IMG/VR virus record: IMGVR_UViG_2579779034_000011
Coordinates: 1-49,804 of that record
Origin: a virus
Taxonomy: Duplodnaviria > Heunggongvirae > Uroviricota > Caudoviricetes
Strand: one strand, 5' to 3'
Length of the DNA stretch: 49,804 nt
Shown: in pieces, positions 1 to 24,498 of the stretch
Layout: every line of letters starts with the position of its first letter
Position numbering within the stretch: the first letter of the stretch is position 1
Translations under genes and position numbers: made by a program
Notes under the pieces: generated by a model
Database searches by the model: none
Seen by the model: the letters and a program-made list of their open reading frames with translations, nothing else
What the model was told of the DNA's origin: nothing

Positions 1-861
1 ATGGTTGACAATGTTTTTAAGAAGAAATTGGCATCAATTAAGAACGAACATGTGTCGGTGTTAGATAGTTACAAAGTAAGATCATTTAAAGAGACTCATA
101 GCGACACGGCCTGTATTGTGCGTATTATTGAAATATATTCACTGAATAAGCTGCGAGCTAAAGGTGAAAAGCTGTATTCACTTACGGGGTTAACAGTACC
201 TGATACGGAAACTGTGGCGAATGAGATCAACCTGCTCCTGAGCCGTTATGCCCAGTTGTGTCGTCAGGAAGAGGAAGAGTTATCTTTCCGGCAGCGTGAA
301 GTGACAAATGCGGAAGTTGCATGGAAAAGCACATTCTCAAAAAACGGCGTCAGTAGCATTGCTGAAGCCAAAACGAATAAAATGGGGCATGCTGAACGAG
401 CGGATGCTGAACGGTATTACCATCTGGCTGTTTCCCGGTTGAATGAACAACATAGTCGATTGAGCACGATCAAGCTTTTGCCGGGAGTACTGGCCGATGA
501 AGGAAACTACATTGGGAAGGGAATCGATAAGCGTTTACTGAATATATTTCCTCAATCCGGCCAGATCCCTGCTGATTTTATTTCTGTATTTAATGACAGT
601 GACGTTGTCCGTGATATTAAATTTATTACTGATGCACTCAAGTCTTTATCTGATTCCGTGAGTGAAATTATTAGTCGTTGTAGCGTTCCAACTGATCGTT
701 ATGTATTAAATAACGGTGGAATGGCAAGAGCTATGGCTTACAGGGAGTACTATCGAGCAGATAATTATGTATTACGTTCAGTCGTAAGTGACCGGGATTA
801 TGTTGAGCATGTAATGAAATACAATCTGGTTACTGAGTACAAAAATAAAATCTTTTCTTAA
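1..861 (+). CDS. hypothetical protein, possible scaffold-like partner of the downstream capsid gene (5' end may be cut by the window edge)
   Basis: 286-codon ORF beginning at window position 1; co-oriented with and 22 bp upstream of a P2-family capsid-like gene; no motif recognised. Confidence 0.45.
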   Translation: MVDNVFKKKLASIKNEHVSVLDSYKVRSFKETHSDTACIVRIIEIYSLNKLRAKGEKLYSLTGLTVPDTETVANEINLLLSRYAQLCRQEEEELSFRQREVTNAEVAWKSTFSKNGVSSIAEAKTNKMGHAERADAERYYHLAVSRLNEQHSRLSTIKLLPGVLADEGNYIGKGIDKRLLNIFPQSGQIPADFISVFNDSDVVRDIKFITDALKSLSDSVSEIISRCSVPTDRYVLNNGGMARAMAYREYYRADNYVLRSVVSDRDYVEHVMKYNLVTEYKNKIFS

Positions 862-883
862 ATACTTAAAAAGGTGAAAAACT

Positions 884-1888
884 ATGTATGCCTTCAAAAC
901 TGAAAGGCCGGACGCAGCACGTCGTTATCATAATAAATTCGTCACTGGCACTAACTATCAGGAAGAATCAAACAGACGCTTTGCATTAAGCGAACCTACT
1001 GAAAATATACTGCGTACCTCAATTCTGGAATCCGGGTGGCTTATTAAAAATATTACCCTACGTGATGTTAACGCCGTGTCAGGTAATGCCGTCAATATTG
1101 GTGCCAGTGAACTGTATACCGGACGTGTGGATGGTGGCCGTTTCCACAAAAAAATGGCAATCAATGGTACGGAGTTCTTTCTGACAGAGACGGATACCTG
1201 CGCCCGGATCAGCTATTCCGATATGTCTCATATTTACCATACCGGCGTGCCGGATGAGTTTGAGAAAACGGTTGAGAGCTTTTTTGCCCAGGCATATGCG
1301 CTGGACATGCTGCGGGTCGGTTTCAACGGTGTGTCGATTGCAAATACTACAAACCCGGAAATCAATAAAAAAGGCGAGGATGTCAATATTGGCTGGCATG
1401 CACTGGCGAAAGCCTACGGGAACGGAAAGCAAATCATCTCTGAGCCTGTCACTCTGGGAGAGACTGGCACCTGGAAAAATATTGATGCTCTGGCCAACCA
1501 TCTGATTACAGAGCTTATTGCTGAGCAGTTTCGTGAAGATCCTCGTCTGGTTGTACTGGTTGGGGCAGAGCTGGCAGCACATCAACGCCTGAAGTTATTT
1601 AATGCCGCAGACCGCCCGTCTGATGTGAATGCGGCACAGATGGCTACAAGTTCTGTTGCTGGCCGCTTTGCGTTTATTCCCCCGTTTATGCCGGGTAAGC
1701 GTCTGGCAGTAACGACGCTGGATAATCTGCATATTTACACTCAGGCGATAACACGCTGGTTTCGTGCTGAGTTTGATGATGAAAGCAGTGAATACGTGCA
1801 TTCCTACCTGCGCAATGAAGGTTATGCACTCGGTGAACCTGAACTGTACGCGGCTGTTGATGAGTGCACCCTGACGTTTGCGGATTGA
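884..1888 (+). CDS. P2-family (gpN-like) major capsid protein
   Basis: 334 aa; blocks LDMLRVGFNGV, VNIGW, FREDPRLVVLVGAELAA, TLDNLHIYTQ and C-terminal YAAVDEC resemble P2 gpN as I recall it; RBS-like AAAGGTGAAAA upstream. Confidence 0.6.
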   Translation: MYAFKTERPDAARRYHNKFVTGTNYQEESNRRFALSEPTENILRTSILESGWLIKNITLRDVNAVSGNAVNIGASELYTGRVDGGRFHKKMAINGTEFFLTETDTCARISYSDMSHIYHTGVPDEFEKTVESFFAQAYALDMLRVGFNGVSIANTTNPEINKKGEDVNIGWHALAKAYGNGKQIISEPVTLGETGTWKNIDALANHLITELIAEQFREDPRLVVLVGAELAAHQRLKLFNAADRPSDVNAAQMATSSVAGRFAFIPPFMPGKRLAVTTLDNLHIYTQAITRWFRAEFDDESSEYVHSYLRNEGYALGEPELYAAVDECTLTFAD

Positions 1889-1901
1889 CTTAGCGACAGA
1901 A

Positions 1902-1923
1902 AGACCCGCTCAGAGGCGGGTCT
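1902..1923 (+). terminator. hairpin after the capsid-like gene (terminator-like)
   Basis: inverted repeat AGACCCGC/GCGGGTCT 14 bp after the stop codon, followed by a weak T tract. Confidence 0.4.
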
Positions 1924-2085
1924 CGTTTACAGCATCAGGAAAAATGAAGAACTATTTTTAAGCAGAGGCTTAAGCATGCCAGCGTTAATTAATCCAGGCA
2001 ATGATCAGTTTTCGGTTATAAATTTCTTGCCTCACCAGGAATGCGCGGGATATAGTTTAAAGGTTGCCGCAAAATCGGCAGCCGG

Positions 2086-2111
2086 GCGTAGGAACCCGTG
2101 TTATCTGAAGG
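2086..2111 (+). promoter_or_regulatory. seqA-like box of a P4-type RNA immunity leader
   Basis: GTAGGAAC...TCTGAAGG; both blocks are complementary to the box at 2262..2288 on the same strand. Confidence 0.4.
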
Positions 2112-2261
2112 CGATACTACACGCGCTAGGCGTGTTTTTTTGTGTCGCAGCTTTGACTCACCTAAAATTTATGGTGTGGTGGCTGATTGTATTTTTTTAT
2201 TTTTTACGCCACATCATCAGAATTATGGTAGTCCAGGCGGGGCAGCTTTCGGGCTGGCCGG

Positions 2262-2288
2262 TATCCTTCAGAGCCGGTATTCCTACCC
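2262..2288 (+). ncRNA. candidate CI-RNA-like immunity RNA core (seqB-like); RNA ends not determinable
   Basis: CCTTCAGA...TTCCTAC is the reverse complement of both blocks in the upstream and downstream boxes. Confidence 0.35.
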
Positions 2289-2310
2289 CCGTCTGGGCTA
2301 CCACCCATGA

Positions 2311-2351
2311 GCGTAGGAACTCCGGTGGTAGCGTTACCCGCTATCTGAAGG
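2311..2351 (+). promoter_or_regulatory. seqC-like box overlapping the RBS of the first gene of the primase operon
   Basis: GTAGGAAC...TCTGAAGG repeated; the TCTGAAGGAGG segment contains the Shine-Dalgarno of the ORF starting at 2363. Confidence 0.4.
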
Positions 2352-2362
2352 AGGTTGCCATT

Positions 2363-2566
2363 ATGGCTACAGTCCCTGCTTTATCTCACCCTGAATTTAC
2401 CTTTGTCTTTCTGGCTGTCCGCCGTACAGACCGTGATGCCCGTCCACGCCCTGTGCGTGTAATCGCAGAATGCGAGCATGCTGCACGCCTTAAACTTGCC
2501 ACTGAATTTATCCTGAGCTTTGCTGCCCGTATCCCTGTGAAAAGAGCCGGGGAGGTGGTTGCATGA
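2363..2566 (+). CDS. hypothetical protein (first gene of the primase operon)
   Basis: 67 aa; GGAGG 8 nt upstream of ATG; stop overlaps the next start (ATGA). Confidence 0.5.
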   Translation: MATVPALSHPEFTFVFLAVRRTDRDARPRPVRVIAECEHAARLKLATEFILSFAARIPVKRAGEVVA

Positions 2567-2799
2567 AATCCATGAATTTTAAGCAAGGCTGCATATTGAG
2601 TGAACAGGGGGAGAGTCGTCTGTTACGGGCGGCACTGGCCAGTGAGTTTCTTGCAGAGGTCTTGTCCGTGCCCACAGTGAATGGAGCGAGAACTGTTTCA
2701 GCGGAAGGCGCTGCGGCTTTAGTGGCCTGTATTGCCGAACAACTGGATGGCGTTGTTAAGGAAACCAGCACAATTAAGGGAGTGATGCGCGATGAATAA
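2563..2799 (+). CDS. hypothetical protein
   Basis: 78 aa; start and stop overlap the neighbouring genes (translational coupling). Confidence 0.55.
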   Translation: MKSMNFKQGCILSEQGESRLLRAALASEFLAEVLSVPTVNGARTVSAEGAAALVACIAEQLDGVVKETSTIKGVMRDE

Positions 2800-3202
2800 T
2801 AATCAAAATTTAAAGGCGCATGCTTTACGAACAGCAGTCTTACGCTACTACATTGCTGATGCATTCATTTCCTTAATGGTGCGTGTTCATAATGAACCTG
2901 TTTATATTGAAGATGGCGAACGAATAGAACTCTCCCACGAAAAAGTGGTGAGTAATATTATTTACCATATTGAAATGCCGTGGGTGAATGAGTTTGGGGC
3001 TGATGCTGGTTGCATACTGGCCGCAGAGAAACTGGAAAAAATGCTTAAACCAGGCTTTATGTCAGAAAATATTCGCCTGTCAGTTTTTGGTGTCACAGAG
3101 ATGCGTGAGGTTTACCGGGATATTATTTTCGGAGCACCTGATGGCGAACTACCCGAAGGTTTTGAATTTGTGAAGCCGGAAGGTCAGGAGGTGCTGCTGT
3201 GA
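2792..3202 (+). CDS. hypothetical protein
   Basis: 136 aa; 8-bp overlap upstream, 4-bp overlap with the primase start. Confidence 0.6.
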   Translation: MNNNQNLKAHALRTAVLRYYIADAFISLMVRVHNEPVYIEDGERIELSHEKVVSNIIYHIEMPWVNEFGADAGCILAAEKLEKMLKPGFMSENIRLSVFGVTEMREVYRDIIFGAPDGELPEGFEFVKPEGQEVLL

Positions 3203-5886
3203 AAACACCGTCTGTATCCACGATTTCCGGAGCTGCAATTGGGCGCTGGCCTTATATCCTGTCAGCATTAGGTATTAAAGTACCGTCCGCAGGACATCAT
3301 GGGGCTTGCCCTGCCTGTGGTGGAAAAGATCGTTTTCGACTGGACGATAAAGCGGGGCGAGGGACGTGGTTTTGTAATCAGTGCGGTCATGGCGATGGTC
3401 TTGATCTGGTTCGTCTGGTGACAGGAAGAAAGATAAAAGAAGTCGCCGGGATGGTATCTGAGGCGCTTGCATTACCAGAAATACAGGAGAAGCCCGCATT
3501 GCCAGCCAGGAAAAAGGCCGCAGGAAAAGAAGCGGGCGCGGAGCGATATACCAGACTCAGACAGCAGTCCTGCAATGGTGAGCCGGTCTATCTGACAAAT
3601 AAGAGCTTACACGGGTATTCACTTCCCTTGCTGTCACAGCCTTTGAATCTGGCCGGAATAACATTTTCCACCGGTTCATTACTGCTGCCTTTGACGGATA
3701 TTTCCGGGAATATTACTGGTGGCCAGCTTATCAATCCTGACGGGGATAAAAGTCTGCTGCCCGGTAGCCAGCTGTCTGGCGCATTCATTGCCCTGACCGA
3801 TATACCCGCTGAAACACCTGAACAGGTGATTATCACTGAGGGTTTTGCCACGGCGCTTACCGTCAGTCTGCTGACTGAAGGATGGATCGTGGCGGCTGTC
3901 GCTGCCACCAATTTACTGAAGGTGACGGAGCAGATCCGAAAACGCTGGCCGGAAACCCGGATCATTCTGGCCGGAGATAATGATCTGGCTGACGGCAAAG
4001 AAAACACCGGGCGTATTCAGGCAGAGAAAGCCGCCAAAGCGGTGGATGGCTGGGTAACGCTCCCTCCGGTACGCCATAAGGCTGACTGGGATGATTATCG
4101 GCAGGAAGTGGGGAAAGAACGGGCGAGAGATGCCTTTCGTGAAGAAATGACGCTGCATGGCAAAGGGCAGACCCGTTTACCAGAAGGGTTCCGGCTGACA
4201 AAAGAATATTTGTGGTACGACAAGCTGGTTAATAAGTCTGATGGTGATACAGAGATACGTAATATCAAAATTTGCAGTCCGTTGCGGGTGACGGCAATCA
4301 CCAGTGATGCTGATGGAAGTAATTACGGGCGTTTGCTGGAATGGGAAGATACCAACGGAAACAGCCGTAAATGGGCAATGCCGATGGAGATGCTGGGCGG
4401 TAGCGGGGAAGAACTGCGCCGCGTTCTGCTGGTTAACGGGCTTTCTTACATCAACATTAACGGCATGGCCAGAGCATTCCTGATGGAATATATCTCGCTG
4501 TGTAAACCGGACAGAAAAGTAACCTGTGTGAATAAAACTGGCTGGCACGGCGGGGTTTACGTTCTCCAGGATGAAGTGATAGGGCGCGAAGCCCAGTCAG
4601 TCATCTTACAAACATCGAGTGTGCAGGGGCGTGATTTTCGTGTCAGCGGCACATCAGAGGGCTGGCGTGAAAATATAGGCCGTTATTGCATAAAGAATGC
4701 CCGTCTTGCCTTTGCGGTGAGTCTGGCATTTGCTGCCCCCCTTCTGAAACTGGTTGGTATCGGCGGTGGAGGTTATCACCTCAAAGGGGAATCCACAGAC
4801 GGTAAAACCACGACGATGAAAGTGGCTGCATCAGTATGTGGTGGAACAGATTTCTGGCATACGTGGCGGGCGACGGGGAATGCCTTAGAAGGAACGGCGA
4901 GCCGCCGCAATGATGCCACGCTGATGCTGGATGAAATCCGGGAGGTTGACGGCAGGGAGGCGGGAAATATCGCTTATATGCTGGCTAACGGGCAGGGCAA
5001 AGCCAGAGCCAGAACAGATGGTTCGGTAAGGGAAACCAACCGCTGGAATCTGTTGTTTCTGTCTACCGGGGAACTGTCACTGGTAGAGCATGCGGCAAGC
5101 GCCGGGGAACGTACGTATGCCGGGGTTGAGGTCAGAATGATCCAGATCCCAAGCGATTCGGGCAAGTATGGCGTGTTTGAAGAACTTCATGGCTTCAGTA
5201 GCGGGAAAACCCTGGCTGAGCATCTTGAGCAGCACGTAGCGCATTATCATGGTGCACCATTCCGCGACTGGCTGTATTGCCTGACCGCTGATCTGCCGGA
5301 ACTGACCAGTCAGGCGAAAGCCTTATTGAAAGAGTATACCCGAAGGCTGACGCCGGAAAATGCCGGGAATCAGGTTGGCCGGGCTGTTACCCGTTTTGCT
5401 CTGGTTGCGATGGCCGGGGAGCTGGCCACAAAAGCGGGCATCACAGGATGGCCGGAGGGAGAGGCCTTTCGTGCCGCTCAAAGCTGTCTGGCTGCATGGA
5501 TGGCTGACCGGGGCCATACAGCTAATCAGGAAGATAAAGCGGCACTTGAACAGGTTCGGGACTTCATGACGCGTAATCAGTTCAGTCGGTTTGCTGACTG
5601 GAATGACGACAGGAACCGGCCTGTTTCAATGATGGGATTCAGAAAAGTCGATAAAGGAGACAACGTGACAGAGCCGGTTGTGACGTTCTACGTTCTCCCG
5701 TCAGGCTGGAAGGAGATCTGTAAGGGATTTGACTCGCGTAAGGTGGCCAGGTTGTGTGTGGACGCGGGCTGGCTGAAACCCGGTGAAGATGGCCGGACGC
5801 AAAACAGCATTCGCCTGCCAGAAATAGGGCTTAAACGTGTGTACCAGTTCAATACACAGGTACTGGGAAGCGCTGAACCTGAGTGA
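3199..5886 (+). CDS. P4 alpha-like primase-helicase (Zn ribbon + TOPRIM primase + P-loop NTPase)
   Basis: 895 aa; CPACGG...CNQCGH zinc ribbon; EGFATA primase motif; DND acidic motif; Walker A GESTDGKTT; Walker B LMLDEI. Confidence 0.85.
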   Translation: MKTPSVSTISGAAIGRWPYILSALGIKVPSAGHHGACPACGGKDRFRLDDKAGRGTWFCNQCGHGDGLDLVRLVTGRKIKEVAGMVSEALALPEIQEKPALPARKKAAGKEAGAERYTRLRQQSCNGEPVYLTNKSLHGYSLPLLSQPLNLAGITFSTGSLLLPLTDISGNITGGQLINPDGDKSLLPGSQLSGAFIALTDIPAETPEQVIITEGFATALTVSLLTEGWIVAAVAATNLLKVTEQIRKRWPETRIILAGDNDLADGKENTGRIQAEKAAKAVDGWVTLPPVRHKADWDDYRQEVGKERARDAFREEMTLHGKGQTRLPEGFRLTKEYLWYDKLVNKSDGDTEIRNIKICSPLRVTAITSDADGSNYGRLLEWEDTNGNSRKWAMPMEMLGGSGEELRRVLLVNGLSYININGMARAFLMEYISLCKPDRKVTCVNKTGWHGGVYVLQDEVIGREAQSVILQTSSVQGRDFRVSGTSEGWRENIGRYCIKNARLAFAVSLAFAAPLLKLVGIGGGGYHLKGESTDGKTTTMKVAASVCGGTDFWHTWRATGNALEGTASRRNDATLMLDEIREVDGREAGNIAYMLANGQGKARARTDGSVRETNRWNLLFLSTGELSLVEHAASAGERTYAGVEVRMIQIPSDSGKYGVFEELHGFSSGKTLAEHLEQHVAHYHGAPFRDWLYCLTADLPELTSQAKALLKEYTRRLTPENAGNQVGRAVTRFALVAMAGELATKAGITGWPEGEAFRAAQSCLAAWMADRGHTANQEDKAALEQVRDFMTRNQFSRFADWNDDRNRPVSMMGFRKVDKGDNVTEPVVTFYVLPSGWKEICKGFDSRKVARLCVDAGWLKPGEDGRTQNSIRLPEIGLKRVYQFNTQVLGSAEPE

Positions 5887-5911
5887 TTATCGCGTGAGTC
5901 TTATTTTTATG

Positions 5912-6105
5912 AGGTAACACTGGTAACAGAGGTAACACCCGTTACTGATGCGGTTCTTCAGTGTTACCAGTCAAAAATACTGACTGGTAACAGAGGTAAC
6001 AAAAAATGGTGTGTTACCACGCGTTACCTCTTGATTTTGCTAACTGGTAACAGATTAAATCCTTTTAAATCAATAGCGTTACACGTGTTACCAGTGTTAC
6101 ACGTT
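5912..6105. repeat. iteron array, probable origin of replication of the P4-like element
   Basis: about 12 copies of heptamer GGTAACA/TGTTACC in both orientations, including an 18-bp direct repeat CTGGTAACAGAGGTAACA twice; immediately downstream of the primase-helicase gene. Confidence 0.6.
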
Positions 6106-6168
6106 CAGAACAAGAGGTAGGGATCCAAATCCCTTCTTCTGGCGGGCAACAGTATAGGGCACAGAACG

Positions 6169-6441
6169 ATGAAGATGATGAGAATGTACTGCCCCACATG
6201 TCAGGCAGTAGCACGGATAGGTAAAACAAACAGGAAACACCCACAACTGTACGATGTGTACTGCTATTGCTCTAATGTGGAGTGCGGTCACTCGTTTGTG
6301 ATGAATGTTGCTTTCTCCCATTCCGTTAGTCCAAGCGCGCTGAACGGGCAGGGAAGGGTTAAAGAGCTGATTGATGCAATTCCACCCGAGGAACGGGAAA
6401 AGGCTTTAAAGTTGCTGCTGGCTGCGCAAAAGAATGGGTAA
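6169..6441 (+). CDS. Ogr/Delta-family zinc-finger late-gene activator (start may be an internal Met at 6178 or 6187)
   Basis: C-x2-C-x22-C-x4-C spacing (CPTC ... CSNVEC) matching P2 Ogr CPLC ... CQNVNC. Confidence 0.65.
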   Translation: MKMMRMYCPTCQAVARIGKTNRKHPQLYDVYCYCSNVECGHSFVMNVAFSHSVSPSALNGQGRVKELIDAIPPEEREKALKLLLAAQKNG

Positions 6442-7120
6442 AGTATGCGTCGGGAATGGCCGATCTGTTCCCGGAACCTGAACACAGGATTTCAGTTTAT
6501 ACGGTCATAAAATTATTATTTTTCAACTGGTTATCTTCTTCATGTTTCACAAACCTTCATAAAATCACACACCTAAAATTAATTATCCATTTAATATCAT
6601 AGAGTTGCGTATTCAGGCCATAGATTCGACGGACAGTAAAACTGAAAAAAAATGAATTTCTTTTCATTCTTTTCAGTTCCTGTATCGCAGTACATCTCGA
6701 GGACTGGCACGGACTGGCGGTATCGTTTGTAAAAAATCCAGGCTGAAAATTTTTAGTGATATGAAAACCGCAGGCGGGTGCGGTGTAGTGCCGTTTTGGT
6801 CTGTCGAGCGTATATTTTCCTTTTTCACGATTGCTGCATATCAAAACGAATGTGCAGATATCAGGCCGTGTCAAACCGTGAATCGTGGAGCCTAAATGCC
6901 CAAACTACGTTTGTAGACCTAGCTAGGGGAAGGTTTCCACATATACTGCTACCTATCTTCCAGTCGCTGGTGAGGATCAAGGTAAGCTAACTGGTGAACA
7001 AGAAAAGTACTTTCGTATCTTGCGTACTCGTTTTTTTTGATTAGTATGTACAGGTAGTAACTGGATGGTGAGAATTCGTCATAACTTATCAAATTGCATG
7101 ATGTTTATAGAGTATGAGTA

Positions 7121-8002
7121 ATGAGTCATAATAAAAAGGAATATGCTAAATTTTTCCGTCGCCCCATTTTTTCATCCTTAGCAAAAGGTAAGGATATTTC
7201 GGATTTATTTGGGAGTTTTGATTCTTACTGCTATGAAACACTGTTTTCAAACAATGATAATAATGAACATGAGATTTCACTAAGGGATTTATTTACATCA
7301 TTATATGATTTTTTGCGTCTGAATTATAGAAATGAATATGTTTATAAGACAGCACTTGTCAATAAAATAATATTCGGTAAGCACAGCCCAAAAACAAGTT
7401 CGTCGTCCATAGAGTTACCAATTAAAAACTCTATAGTGGATGTTGCGGTGTTTAATGGTACGTCTACAGCTTACGAGATTAAGACAGAGTATGATTCACC
7501 AAAAAGGTTGATTACTCAAGCCCCTGATTATTTGGATGTTTTTGATAAAGTGTATATAGTTACACATCCAGAGTATGCAAGTAAATATTGTGCTTTAAAT
7601 CTCCCCAGAGTGGGAGTTATGGTTTTGAATAAAAAAGATCAATTGAGTGTCATTAAGGAGGCAGATTCAAATATTGATTATATTAAAAGTGACAGCTTGT
7701 TTTCAGTTCTTAGAAAGGAAGAGTTCTTAGCTATAATAGAAGATTACACTTCAACTAAAATAAATATGCCTAACGGATTGGTTTATGAATATTGTAAAGA
7801 GATATTCATGCAGATGCCATTAAACATAGCAAATAAATACTTTATCTCTGCTATGAAAAAAAGATGTAACGATAAAGTTTTTTTGGATTATATTTATTCT
7901 CTTCCAGCATGTTTACGTGTTTTAGGTTATGCAACACCATTATCAAGAAAGCAAAAAGAATTCATCATGAATTTGATGGATGTAAAAATTAAAATTTGTT
8001 GA
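7121..8002 (+). CDS. hypothetical protein, AT-rich cargo gene A; PD-(D/E)xK nuclease-like motif
   Basis: 293 aa; strongly AT-rich relative to flanks; acidic/Lys pattern E72 ... D107 (IVDVAVF) ... E119-I-K121 (AYEIKTE). Confidence 0.6.
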   Translation: MSHNKKEYAKFFRRPIFSSLAKGKDISDLFGSFDSYCYETLFSNNDNNEHEISLRDLFTSLYDFLRLNYRNEYVYKTALVNKIIFGKHSPKTSSSSIELPIKNSIVDVAVFNGTSTAYEIKTEYDSPKRLITQAPDYLDVFDKVYIVTHPEYASKYCALNLPRVGVMVLNKKDQLSVIKEADSNIDYIKSDSLFSVLRKEEFLAIIEDYTSTKINMPNGLVYEYCKEIFMQMPLNIANKYFISAMKKRCNDKVFLDYIYSLPACLRVLGYATPLSRKQKEFIMNLMDVKIKIC

Positions 8003-8023
8003 TATCCTCAGGAGTTGTAAGTT

Positions 8024-8974
8024 ATGTATAGCCCATATTTGTATGCGAGAAGTACAGAGTTATTATGCCTTAGGGACCTCGTTGCGAAGGGAGTTAGCCT
8101 AAATGGTCTGCTACCAATTTTAGAACCAATTAACGTCAATACGAGAAATTTATTAACATGTTTAAATGTTTGGAATTCTGACATAATTGTTATCCTTAAT
8201 CCTTATCAGGAAGATTTTTCTTCACACAATAACGTCTTAACTTTAAATCAAAATTTATCAAGTGTATTAACAAATAAAAATAATATCATCTCTGGATATC
8301 TTATTCAGCCCAATACAACGATTAATGATATTAATAATTGGTTGAATGCTAACTTAAATAGACGAGTTGCACTTCTATATGATAATCCATCATTATCCAA
8401 CTCTGATATTCAGTTGTTGGCGACAAATCAATTGATTAGTTATCATGTTGTTTTAAATAATAAAATGCTTCCTAATCAGTGCGCTCTTCTTCCTTTGTCG
8501 AAGTTAATTATTATTAGCGATAACTTTAGAAAGTTAGCAAAAAATGCTGATTATAATGGGCCGGAACTTTTCACGCACGCACATCAATTCGTGGGACAAA
8601 ATTACTTAGGATTTGGCGATTATACAATTACTGGCCAGGTACTAGATCTTGGAGGTGGTCAACCTTCTGCTGTTGCCGCACATTTGGTGTTCAAGAATTT
8701 ACAAGCGAATACAGTTTGGATTCGTCATTTTGTATCAAGCAACACGCAACGAGGAAGTTCAAATGTTACTGCAAAATTTTTAGATGTTTCAGATCAAATT
8801 ACAAATCTTGTTCCCCAACATCCAACCCAGTTTGGCAGCAACATTGGTCTTAACTATTATTATTACAATAGTCAACCAACTGTAAGGCATTTCCCTGGGT
8901 TGCCAAAAAACAAACAGTATCAAATTACTCACCATATTTGTTTCATGCTGGATTTAATAGCAGGTCGTATTTAA
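8024..8974 (+). CDS. hypothetical protein, AT-rich cargo gene B
   Basis: 316 aa; 21 bp downstream of gene A, same strand and composition; last 7 codons overlap the integrase 3' end on the opposite strand; no motif recognised. Confidence 0.6.
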   Translation: MYSPYLYARSTELLCLRDLVAKGVSLNGLLPILEPINVNTRNLLTCLNVWNSDIIVILNPYQEDFSSHNNVLTLNQNLSSVLTNKNNIISGYLIQPNTTINDINNWLNANLNRRVALLYDNPSLSNSDIQLLATNQLISYHVVLNNKMLPNQCALLPLSKLIIISDNFRKLAKNADYNGPELFTHAHQFVGQNYLGFGDYTITGQVLDLGGGQPSAVAAHLVFKNLQANTVWIRHFVSSNTQRGSSNVTAKFLDVSDQITNLVPQHPTQFGSNIGLNYYYYNSQPTVRHFPGLPKNKQYQITHHICFMLDLIAGRI

Positions 8975-10129
8975 TAAGCTAGCGTACCATTCCATCATTA
9001 CTTGTCGATCTTTAATATATTGCGCATGATTGTAAGTACCTCGAATAGAGTTCTTATCAACATGCGCAAGCTGCATTTCAATCCAGGCACTTTCAAACCC
9101 ATGCTCATGCAAGATGGTGCTCATGGTATGCCTGAAACCGTGACCCGTTAACCGACCGTGATAACCCAGTAGTTTTATCACTTTGTTGATGCTGGCTTCG
9201 CTCATTGGTTTACTGACGTCATTCCGGCCAGGGAAAACGAGGCTGTAATTCCCTGTTATTTCTTGCAGCTTTTTCAGGATATTGATCGCCTGAGTTGATA
9301 ACGGAACCAGATGGGGGCGGCGTTTCTTCATCCGTTCTTTGGGGATCTCCCATAAGGCATTATCTAAATCAAACTCAGCCCATTCCGCTGCACGTAGTTC
9401 AATTGTTCGCACGCCTGTTAGCATCAACAGCTGCGTGGCGTATTTGGTAACTAAACTGCCCTGATAGTTATCCAGAGCATTAACGAACTCGGGCAACTCG
9501 CTTTCAGTCAGGAACGGGAAGTGTTGGGTTTTAGGTTTGTTGAGTGCGATAGCTAAATCGGGTGCAAAATTATACTTTGCTCTACCAGTGGCAACAGCAT
9601 AACGAAGCACTTCACCACAGCGGCGGCGGATCTTACTGGTTTGCTCTAGCGCACCTCTTTTCTCTATTTTTTGCAGGACGGTTAGCAGTTCTAATGGTTC
9701 AATCTGCTCAATTGGGCGCTGGCCGATAAAAGGAAAAATATCCTTTTCCATACAATTGAGAACCTCTTTTGCATAACCCTCTGACCAGGTGGCTTTTTTC
9801 GATGAGTGCCATTCTCTGGCCACAGACTCAAAGCTGTTCTCATGCGCGAACTGCAAAGCAATCTTATCTGCTTTTCTGGCTTCACTTGGGTTTATCCCGT
9901 TGGCTAACATCGAACGCGCTTCATCACGTTTGGTACGTGCCTGTGCCAACGACACATCGCCATATACGCCAAAGGAAATCATCTTAGGCTTACCTGCAAA
10001 GCGATAGCGAAAACGCCAGCCTTTACTGCCCGCTGTGTCGATCAGGAGTGATAGCCCCATACCATCGTTAAGCGTATAGGGTTTGTCCTTCGGTTTTGCT
10101 CTTTTTATTTGGATGTCAGATAGCAGCAT
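8954..10129 (-). CDS. int: tyrosine integrase, P4-type (start taken at MLLSDIQIK; ORF extends to 10177)
   Basis: N-terminal KPKDKPY arm-binding motif; C-terminal HGFRHT ... LAH ... RGTYNHAQY catalytic region. Confidence 0.9.
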   Translation of the reverse strand: MLLSDIQIKRAKPKDKPYTLNDGMGLSLLIDTAGSKGWRFRYRFAGKPKMISFGVYGDVSLAQARTKRDEARSMLANGINPSEARKADKIALQFAHENSFESVAREWHSSKKATWSEGYAKEVLNCMEKDIFPFIGQRPIEQIEPLELLTVLQKIEKRGALEQTSKIRRRCGEVLRYAVATGRAKYNFAPDLAIALNKPKTQHFPFLTESELPEFVNALDNYQGSLVTKYATQLLMLTGVRTIELRAAEWAEFDLDNALWEIPKERMKKRRPHLVPLSTQAINILKKLQEITGNYSLVFPGRNDVSKPMSEASINKVIKLLGYHGRLTGHGFRHTMSTILHEHGFESAWIEMQLAHVDKNSIRGTYNHAQYIKDRQVMMEWYASLLNTTCY

Positions 10130-10377
10130 GTGTATAGAAAAAAGATCGAACTCAGTTATACACAATGTTATACGCAAAGATGTATAGATTCCATTAGAAA
10201 TAATGGTACTTTGCTGGACGAGTATAAGGAGATGATATCAGTTAAAACAGTGAGTTATGGAATTAATTGAACTTAGTGAGAAGTGTTCATGGTGTCCCCT
10301 GCAGACATCTACTTCAAGCGGCAGGGGATTGATTGGAATGGTGTTTTTTAGATGTGAAAAATATTTTACCCGCTATT

Positions 10378-10593
10378 TTACCCATTGGCGCGGCTTAAGA
10401 GCTTATTTTTGAATTCACAATGGTCACGATATAACCATCTTGCTCGTCCGTGGATAACTTTGGCTTTAGGCAGGTCGCCGGACTTAATCCGGTCATAGAT
10501 GAAGGTCTTACCGAAGCCAGTATCAGCCATGATGAATTTCAAATCAACCAGTGAATCAGGTTGTAGTTCGTGTTGCATGAGTGCTATCTCCAA
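10378..10593 (-). CDS. xis: AlpA/Xis-type excisionase-like DNA-binding protein
   Basis: 71 aa; resembles AlpA-type excisionases as I recall them; about 250 bp upstream of int on the same strand. Confidence 0.6.
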   Translation of the reverse strand: MEIALMQHELQPDSLVDLKFIMADTGFGKTFIYDRIKSGDLPKAKVIHGRARWLYRDHCEFKNKLLSRANG

Positions 10594-24342: not shown

Positions 24343-24417
24343 GGGTCAGTCGTATAAAGGTCATTACGGAAGGCTGTTAACCTTCTTATCGTGGTTCGAG
24401 TCCACGCTGTCCCGCCA
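24343..24417 (+). tRNA. tRNA-Asn-like (anticodon GUU), possibly degenerate
   Basis: hand-folded cloverleaf: perfect anticodon stem GAAGG/CCTTC with loop CTGTTAA, perfect T arm CGTGG-TTCGAGT-CCACG, 3' CCA; one mismatch each in acceptor and D stems. Confidence 0.55.
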
Positions 24418-24422
24418 AATAT

Positions 24423-24498
24423 GCTGGTTTAGCTCCAATGGTAGAGCAGTCGCCTTGTAAGCGAATGGGTAGCGGTTCAAGTCCGTTAACCAGCACCA
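24423..24498 (+). tRNA. tRNA-Thr (anticodon UGU)
   Basis: hand-folded cloverleaf: 7-bp acceptor GCTGGTT/AACCAGC, D stem GCTC/GAGC, anticodon loop CTTGTAA, T loop TTCAAGT, 3' ACCA. Confidence 0.7.

Follow-up and report, generated by a model that had tools for sequence, protein, structure and literature searches.

A two-gene, Gop-less relative of gop-beta-cII, probably of defence type, in the cargo slot of a P4-like satellite of Escherichia coli

What function is encoded by two unusually AT-rich genes that lie against the 3' end of a phage-type integrase gene? The question is raised by a cassette at positions 7121-8974 of IMG/VR virus record IMGVR_UViG_2579779034_000011 (Caudoviricetes), a stretch of 49,804 nucleotides that was analysed at its full length and is called the window here. 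The cassette consists of two open reading frames (ORFs) on the plus strand, ORF A (7121-8002, 293 aa), of the sce7726 or Phage_P4_cII family, and ORF B (8024-8974, 316 aa), of the sce7725 family, separated by a spacer of 21 bp (8003-8023, plus strand) in which an AGGAG ribosome-binding site for ORF B can be read. We consider it reasonably probable that this cassette is a two-gene, defence-type and Gop-less relative of the gop-beta-cII system of P4, composed of a Beta-like sensor or regulator and a cII-like nuclease; the division of labour between the two proteins is the weaker part of this reading. In P4, the gop-beta-cII trio protects against lambda and P1 (PMC9122126).

Both ORFs are confirmed as real genes. 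Long ORFs are unlikely to arise by chance in DNA this rich in AT, the Prokaryotic Genome Annotation Pipeline (PGAP) calls both at identical coordinates in hundreds of E. coli genomes, each has homologues across many phyla, and an "sce7725 family protein" has been found by liquid chromatography-tandem mass spectrometry in clinical E. coli isolates (PMC8203672). An earlier, sequence-only reading of this DNA had described two co-directional frames of 293 and 316 aa spaced by 21 bp, far more AT-rich than their flanking genes, with the last seven codons of ORF B antisense to the end of the integrase gene (int), and all of this was borne out. The GC content is 30.6% in ORF A, 34.0% in ORF B and 32.4% in the whole cassette, against 45.4-53.3% in the neighbours (primase gene 53.3%, ogr/Delta 48.0%, int 45.4%) and 46.7% in the window, of which the cassette is the lowest-GC stretch of 1854 bp, about 3.6 standard deviations under the mean; 0.25% of sliding windows have a GC content as low. 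Since int, on the minus strand, ends at 8954, its convergent overlap with ORF B runs from 8954 to 8974, which is 21 nt or seven codons per strand, stop codons counted.

The relationship of ORF A to a known protein is supported by several matches. It matches the NCBIfam model NF033832 (sce7726) at 175.6 bits (E 9.6e-52, cut-off 70 bits), to which P4 cII scores 151.4 bits, and RefSeq labels P4 cII an sce7726 family protein. The PADLOC model PDLC02989 ("cll") matches ORF A at 1.2e-18 and is the same model that matches P4 cII (3e-113), BLASTP aligns ORF A with P4 cII at 39% identity over the catalytic strands (E 9e-11), and homologues of ORF A, including a 100%-identical cluster (P0074), bear the precomputed label PF26915, Phage_P4_cII. 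A Pfam search gave no useful match for either ORF; for ORF A this is an artefact of the library version, because the PF26915 model was evidently missing from the Pfam-A copy searched. The protein comprises an N-terminal helical extension (residues 1-69), a core (about 70-180) with the alpha-beta-beta-beta-alpha-beta fold of the PD-(D/E)xK superfamily, and a C-terminal helical domain (190-285). Six residues (E72, D107, E119, K121, D125 and Q133) never vary among 44 homologues, nor among the cII-family proteins compared (22 of 22), which were drawn from all the gene architectures described below. The nearest folds, at 13-15% identity, are MmcB-like/DUF1052 PD-(D/E)xK nucleases (PDB 3dnx, SPO1766) and type II restriction endonucleases; unlike these, ORF A has additional N- and C-terminal helical domains and an obligate Beta-like partner. 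Sequence searches of the PDB with the ORF A and ORF B family profiles returned nothing below E 0.04. At the level of sequence, ORF A is shown to be a homologue of P4 cII and a predicted PD-(D/E)xK nuclease whose active-site residues are all conserved. The motif noticed in the sequence-only reading (E72, D107 and E119-x-K121) is upheld, being invariant in the homologues and placed on a nuclease fold; its statement that the protein resembles none of P4 is contradicted by the sce7726 and cll matches.

For ORF B, the relationship is more distant. The protein matches NCBIfam NF033831 (sce7725) at 242.2 bits (E 1.1e-71, cut-off 60 bits), with residues 2-311 on positions 1-311 of a 312-position model, and PHROGs places it in a family of unknown function. 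The sce7725 family comprises 1,490 clusters at 50% identity (E <= 1e-3), and the best 150 of these 1,490 representatives are mostly 300-325 aa long (range 270-327). Structure prediction gives a confident model of a single-domain, TIM-barrel-like fold, and the invariant polar residues (E12, E34, N59, D199, H220, H235, S238, K297 and H304), several of which appear to sit just after predicted strands, suggest an enzyme or a ligand-binding site. When ORF B was compared with P4 Beta (PF14350), BLASTP gave no significant match, and single-sequence hhalign gave matches that were not significant or were N-terminal only. Alignment of a 44-member sce7725 profile with a 41-member Beta profile by hhalign returned a probability of 91% and E 1e-6 over 251 columns, spanning ORF B 1-268 and Beta 7-298 and bringing into register an N-terminal Y-x-P-x-L-x-x-R-x-x-E motif and a G-D motif (GFGDY in ORF B, IYGDH in Beta). 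ORF B is thus likely, from these profiles, to be a remote homologue of Beta, and the view that it fits no named family and is like no P4 protein is not supported. Both proteins score far above the cut-offs of NCBIfam families whose names PGAP uses in at least 421 complete E. coli genomes; these names come from adjacent Sorangium cellulosum genes and carry no function. With both proteins in named, functionally empty families, the pair is less novel than first thought. Our literature search found no paper characterising the sce7725/sce7726 pair, the names being merely listed.

The next question is whether the two genes belong together. All 20 loci for which flanking DNA was available have an sce7725 gene and a cII-family gene as immediate neighbours, so that the pair is conserved in unrelated genomes. 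In 18 of the 20 both genes point the same way, the cII-like gene first and sce7725 second, and the distance between them ranges from about -60 to +63 nt; a convergent pair is found only in the Pyrinomonadaceae records L003 and L004, which represent the same locus. Hosts include gamma-, beta- and delta-Proteobacteria, Firmicutes (Clostridioides difficile, Peptococcaceae), Bacteroidota, Synergistota and Acidobacteriota, and the pair spans at least five phyla; Leptospira is a further host according to the literature. Measured against the E. coli pair, the two proteins diverge in step (Spearman 0.91, 17 loci), which, as the loci are not phylogenetically independent, shows co-inheritance and nothing more. 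The sequence comparisons show joint inheritance of the two genes across phyla. Within 5 kb of the pair, raw counts of neighbours include Hachiman with a type I restriction-modification (RM) subunit and an SLFN/AlbA protein, Lamassu (3 loci), ThsB/TIR (3 loci), KwaB, DUF2290 with a helicase, and HipBA; BglII/MT-A70 genes are neighbours at some loci. In Morganella and Variovorax a P4-type integrase gene follows sce7725 convergently, as in the window, and the Morganella locus also has a DUF927 primase. A profile scan of viral contigs, made with a narrower alignment, mostly recovered the same E. coli locus.

The strongest contextual evidence on the kind of function is that two established defence systems alternate with the pair at one site. 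The cassette lies in a P4-like satellite, the backbone of which (4800-6800) is present in 446 of 5,426 complete E. coli genomes, at >=99% identity in 421, including EC958 and other O25b:H4-ST131 strains. The exact cassette is found in 421 of the 5,426 (about 8%), the same frequency as that of the >=99% backbone. In E. coli CT01 and PEC1011 the backbone shows 96.5-96.7% identity as far as position 6800 or so, after which other cargo follows at the same point: Kiwa in CT01 (KwaA 4e-83, KwaB 3e-131) and PARIS in PEC1011 (AriA 5e-29, AriB 2e-12), where the satellite likewise lies at argW and AriB, like ORF B, overlaps the 3' end of int, in this case by 22 nt (10401-10422 of locus record L045). These proteins are unrelated to those of the cassette; what is shared is the satellite lineage, the insertion point downstream of ogr/Delta and, for PARIS, the convergent int overlap at argW, and the comparison therefore bears on the kind of function and not on the mechanism. 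With Kiwa or PARIS at the exact position of the cassette elsewhere in E. coli, the site is a defence hotspot: a variable slot between the conserved satellite genes ogr/Delta and int, whose alternative cargoes are validated defence systems. The canonical P4 hotspot in the sense of Rousset et al., which extends from psu to int next to cos, is a different arrangement, and no recognisable psu or cos was found here. The sequence-only reading had taken the pair for accessory genes that were acquired separately and lie 3' of int, where P4-like satellites carry variable defence cargo, and both the breaks in homology and the occupants of the slot in sister satellites agree with this.

These breaks also delimit what is exchanged. 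Homology to the Kiwa and PARIS sister satellites stops at 6799-6802 and homology to PEC1011 restarts at 9013, within int, at 87%, so that the exchanged module extends from about 6803 to 9012 and takes in some 320 bp ahead of ORF A as well as the final 20 or so codons of int (8954-9012, minus strand), of which 8954-8974 overlaps the 3' end of ORF B. Because homology restarts only at 9013, the cargo swaps seem to replace the C-terminus of the integrase as well. The left part of the module (6803-7120, plus strand), where the GC content begins to drop, is a putative, cassette-specific promoter region or 5' leader. A promoter scan upstream of ORF A gave no confident site, and promoter and terminator scanning was altogether uninformative in the AT-rich DNA of the cassette; no ORF with a homologue or annotation was found in 6803-7120. 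The module is preceded by about 360 bp of conserved, gene-free backbone (6442-6802), between ogr/Delta and the cargo breakpoint; at 6767-6794 both strands contain terminator-like hairpins that overlap one another. This stretch may be the terminator of the late operon, a packaging site or a recombination boundary. In several otherwise identical E. coli loci the cassette itself is interrupted by IS1, ISEcp1 or IS4321 (e.g., NZ_AP022549.1, NZ_CM190141.1 and NZ_CP107120.1), and in at least one of them the annotation of sce7725 is split in two; these disruptions may point to a fitness cost of the pair.

Around the nuclease-barrel core, three architectures can be distinguished. In the P4 type, seen in Methylibium, Acinetobacter and a filamentous prophage of P. 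aeruginosa, a Gop-like ORF with transmembrane (TM) segments abuts Beta, and cII is convergent; in the loci examined (L007-L010) this ORF is small, has one or two N-terminal TM helices and lies upstream of Beta. The trio of the Pf-type prophage (4563-7859 in L009 and L010) adjoins a gene for a HigB-like toxin and a helix-turn-helix (HTH) gene, an arrangement that, by analogy, recalls PD-lambda-2. In the RES type, which corresponds to the most distant sce7725 clade (about 27% identity), a RES-domain gene lies directly downstream of sce7725 in seven of eight loci (L034, L035, L036, L038, L039, L042 and L043), from a 4-nt overlap to 22 nt away and in some cases with HEPN_RES_NTD1; the eighth, L041, has an unannotated gene of 320 aa instead. 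The hosts of this type are Pseudomonas, C. difficile, Chitinophagales, Synergistales, Peptococcaceae and two metagenome contigs, and RES domains are NAD+-degrading toxins (PMC9503650). The third architecture is the bare pair of the window's own clade (Proteobacteria, 34-65% identity), which has no conserved third gene.

How close, then, does the cassette come to systems already described? With P4 gop-beta-cII (Rst_gop_beta_cll in DefenseFinder and PADLOC) it shares a cII of the same family with the same active-site residues, a protein whose remote homology to Beta extends over about 250 columns, and a location in a cargo slot 3' of int in a P4-like satellite. It differs in that no Gop-like membrane protein is encoded (no annotated or homologous small ORF was found in 6442-7120 or the rest of the module), in that ORF B fails the hidden Markov models (HMMs) of Beta, in an N-terminal extension of about 65 residues that ORF A has over P4 cII, and in gene order, being cII-like then Beta-like and co-directional, whereas in P4 gop-beta is convergent with cII. 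Of the three components, cII is matched by the PADLOC cll model; Beta and Gop are not found by these tests, and with two of the three failing, the cassette is not to be filed as a member of gop-beta-cII. The point on which the sequence-only reading had staked the novelty of the pair, that the two proteins should not both show confident homology to a named system, receives a divided answer: the homology is confident for ORF A, whereas for ORF B it is remote and Gop is missing. A second relative is PD-lambda-2. P4 Beta matches the PADLOC PD-Lambda-2_C models at 8e-14 and 1.7e-8, and Vassallo et al. (2022, PMC9519451), who call the third component of PD-lambda-2 "related to a P4 phage antitoxin", found that the toxin is neutralised without it and that defence requires it. 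Since it is needed for defence and not for neutralisation, Beta-like proteins can be read as sensors or activators. ORF B itself does not match the PD-Lambda-2_C models in PADLOC, and the partners in PD-lambda-2 are HigB-like and Xre-peptidase proteins with no cII nuclease, unlike those of the cassette.

From these comparisons a mechanism can be proposed. The module at about 6803-9012 would encode a conflict system of two genes whose role is most likely defence against phages by abortive infection. The Beta-like barrel, probably an enzyme or ligand binder because it has invariant acidic and histidine residues of its own, would act as a sensor or regulator that answers a product of the infecting phage; once activated, it would license the cII-like nuclease to cut DNA, and the phage or the cell would be stopped. 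Effectors would be modular: sister clades would wire the same core pair to an additional killing module, Gop in P4-type loci or a RES toxin in the distant clade, and in the window's clade the nuclease would be the sole candidate effector. In P4, Gop, the putative toxin of the system, is described as toxic without Beta (Rousset et al., PMC9122126), and expression of a phage accessory gene makes gop-beta-cII kill the cell (bioRxiv 10.1101/2023.04.06.535777); the accessory gene orf184 is a trigger of the system.

Several points weigh against this proposal. With Gop absent, the P4 mechanism is not simply transferable. The active site of cII is equally conserved beside Gop or RES, so that the nuclease may serve in sensing or signal generation rather than, or besides, killing. 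ORF B has no PADLOC match and no match to Pfam PF14350 at E <= 1, and its homology to Beta hangs on the one profile-profile comparison at 91% probability. The defence neighbours of the pair are raw counts, and some pair loci (L003) lie among housekeeping genes. Finally, literature searches found no phenotype test of the pair and no paper testing or naming either the two-gene pair or the RES trio, and the supplements of Rousset et al. (2022), two tables of which were covered in part, gave no match to the accessions, the family names or the N-terminal peptides of the two proteins.

A broader version of the proposal, which we hold as a tentative possibility, is that the nuclease-barrel pair is the conserved core of one phylum-spanning immune family, uncatalogued as one system, in which the barrel is a new kind of enzymatic infection sensor and killing modules are swapped. 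If this were true, P4 gop-beta-cII, the cII-sce7725-RES trios and the cassette of E. coli ST131 would be its subtypes, and PD-lambda-2 an offshoot retaining only the sensor.

An enzyme-like barrel with invariant E, D, H, K and N residues next to a predicted nuclease whose catalytic residues are intact is also, formally, the layout of an RM-like system, in which the barrel would mark self DNA, by base exchange or another modification, or alter the nucleotide pool, and the nuclease would cut unmarked, incoming DNA directly, without killing the cell. That restriction endonucleases are among the folds nearest ORF A, and that type I RM and BglII/MT-A70 genes lie near some loci, is consistent with it. 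However, no methyltransferase, S-adenosylmethionine or queuosine-pathway domain was found in the Pfam and NCBIfam searches, and the relatives of the pair are wired to suicide-type effectors (Gop, RES), the triggered gop-beta-cII response being programmed cell death. Given such effectors and such killing, abortive infection is favoured over self/non-self marking, and an RM-like function is improbable.

Equally doubtful is a toxin-antitoxin or addiction module that stabilises the satellite or island with no direct anti-phage role, the nuclease being the toxin and the barrel the antitoxin. Rousset et al., citing Ghisotti et al. (1990), view Gop and Beta as a likely toxin-antitoxin pair (PMC9122126); a tight two-gene operon on mobile elements fits such a module, insertion sequences in the cassette of several E. 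coli genomes are what would be expected of a costly locus, and HipBA and HigBA modules lie near some loci. Yet the slot otherwise holds Kiwa and PARIS, the Beta-like PD-lambda-2C is unnecessary for neutralising its toxin, and an enzyme-like barrel of 316 aa would be an atypical antitoxin. Many toxin-antitoxin-like modules of this slot proved to be defence systems, and this alternative therefore overlaps the defence reading rather than excluding it. P4 cII was named for a clear-plaque, lysogenisation phenotype. A satellite life-cycle function inherited from it, such as lysogeny control or helper exploitation, would suit a cassette beside int and the late-gene activator ogr/Delta of a P4-like satellite but is very unlikely indeed, as the pair also occurs with no satellite genes nearby (C. 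difficile, Chitinophagales, Pyrinomonadaceae, Paraburkholderia defence islands), sister satellites lack it and carry Kiwa or PARIS instead, and gop, beta and cII are non-essential in P4 (Rousset et al., PMC9122126).

Returning to the defence reading, the pair, which is common in E. coli ST131, is a worthwhile candidate and open to direct test. At about 8% of complete E. coli genomes the cassette is frequent, yet PADLOC 2.0 flags only an orphan cll (ORF A), and the three-gene rule of DefenseFinder would presumably miss the pair too. If the pair defends alone, Gop would be an optional add-on and not the heart of gop-beta-cII, the mechanistic question would move to the conserved nuclease-barrel core, and a minimal two-protein system would be at hand for studying the mechanism of gop-beta-cII and PD-lambda-2. 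If it defends, it would also be one more factor in how susceptible a strain is to phages, which matters for phage therapy against ST131.

The element that carries the cassette can be described in some detail. Positions 1-10304 of the window match E. coli SK1144 at 99.99% identity. There, from left to right, dsdC is followed by the genes of the element (an HTH gene, a hypothetical gene, a homologue of the P2-family capsid gene, an Ash/Icd-like gene, two small genes, a Zn-ribbon/Toprim/DUF927 primase gene, ogr/Delta, sce7726, sce7725 and int) and then by tRNA-Arg and yfdC; on this evidence, the region is a P4-like satellite of about 10.5 kb integrated at argW. The ogr/Delta-like zinc-finger gene (6169-6441, plus strand; Pfam Ogr_Delta 5e-14), which PGAP annotates equally in SK1144, CT01 and PEC1011, is the final conserved backbone gene ahead of the cargo slot. 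The P4-type tyrosine integrase of the satellite (8954-10129, minus strand; Pfam Arm-DNA-bind_3, Phage_int_M and Phage_integrase) starts at 10129 according to PGAP and at 10177 in the longest ORF, and int adjoins tRNA-Arg in SK1144 and PEC1011. Nucleotide similarity to P4 is confined to a single match (2048-2443, 71%); the satellite has no recognisable sid, psu or P4 cos, and the 680-bp gap upstream of ORF A contains no P4 cos or other P4 DNA. The satellite encodes a full-length homologue of the P2-family major capsid protein (PF05125, 226 bits; 884-1888), recorded together with 1-861, 1976-2566, 3199-5886 and 6169-6441, a group that includes the Ash/Icd-like gene, the Zn-ribbon/Toprim/DUF927 primase and Ogr/Delta; a helper-type capsid gene of its own is unusual in a satellite of the P4 group.

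To the right, the satellite is followed in tandem by a lambdoid prophage. The SK1144 match stops at 10304, where tRNA-Arg begins, and the prophage extends from 10305. The junction is formed by the attachment core TGGTGTCCCCTGCAG (10290-10304, plus strand), which is the complement of the 3' end of tRNA-Arg (argW) and occurs once in the window; ARAGORN found no intact tRNA-Arg at this junction. The contexts in SK1144 and PEC1011, together with the argW core, rule out a P22-like assignment of int to the adjacent lambdoid prophage. As int belongs to the satellite, the analogy with the gtrABC conversion genes of P22, which the sequence-only reading had drawn, does not apply, and no domains of gtrABC type (glycosyltransferase, flippase) were found in ORF A or ORF B with Pfam or NCBIfam. 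On the prophage side of the junction, an AlpA/Xis-like ORF (10378-10593) is followed by an ORF for a protein resembling single-stranded DNA-binding proteins and then by another early-region ORF, and genes for tRNA-Asn and tRNA-Thr lie further inside the lambdoid prophage, at 24343-24498.

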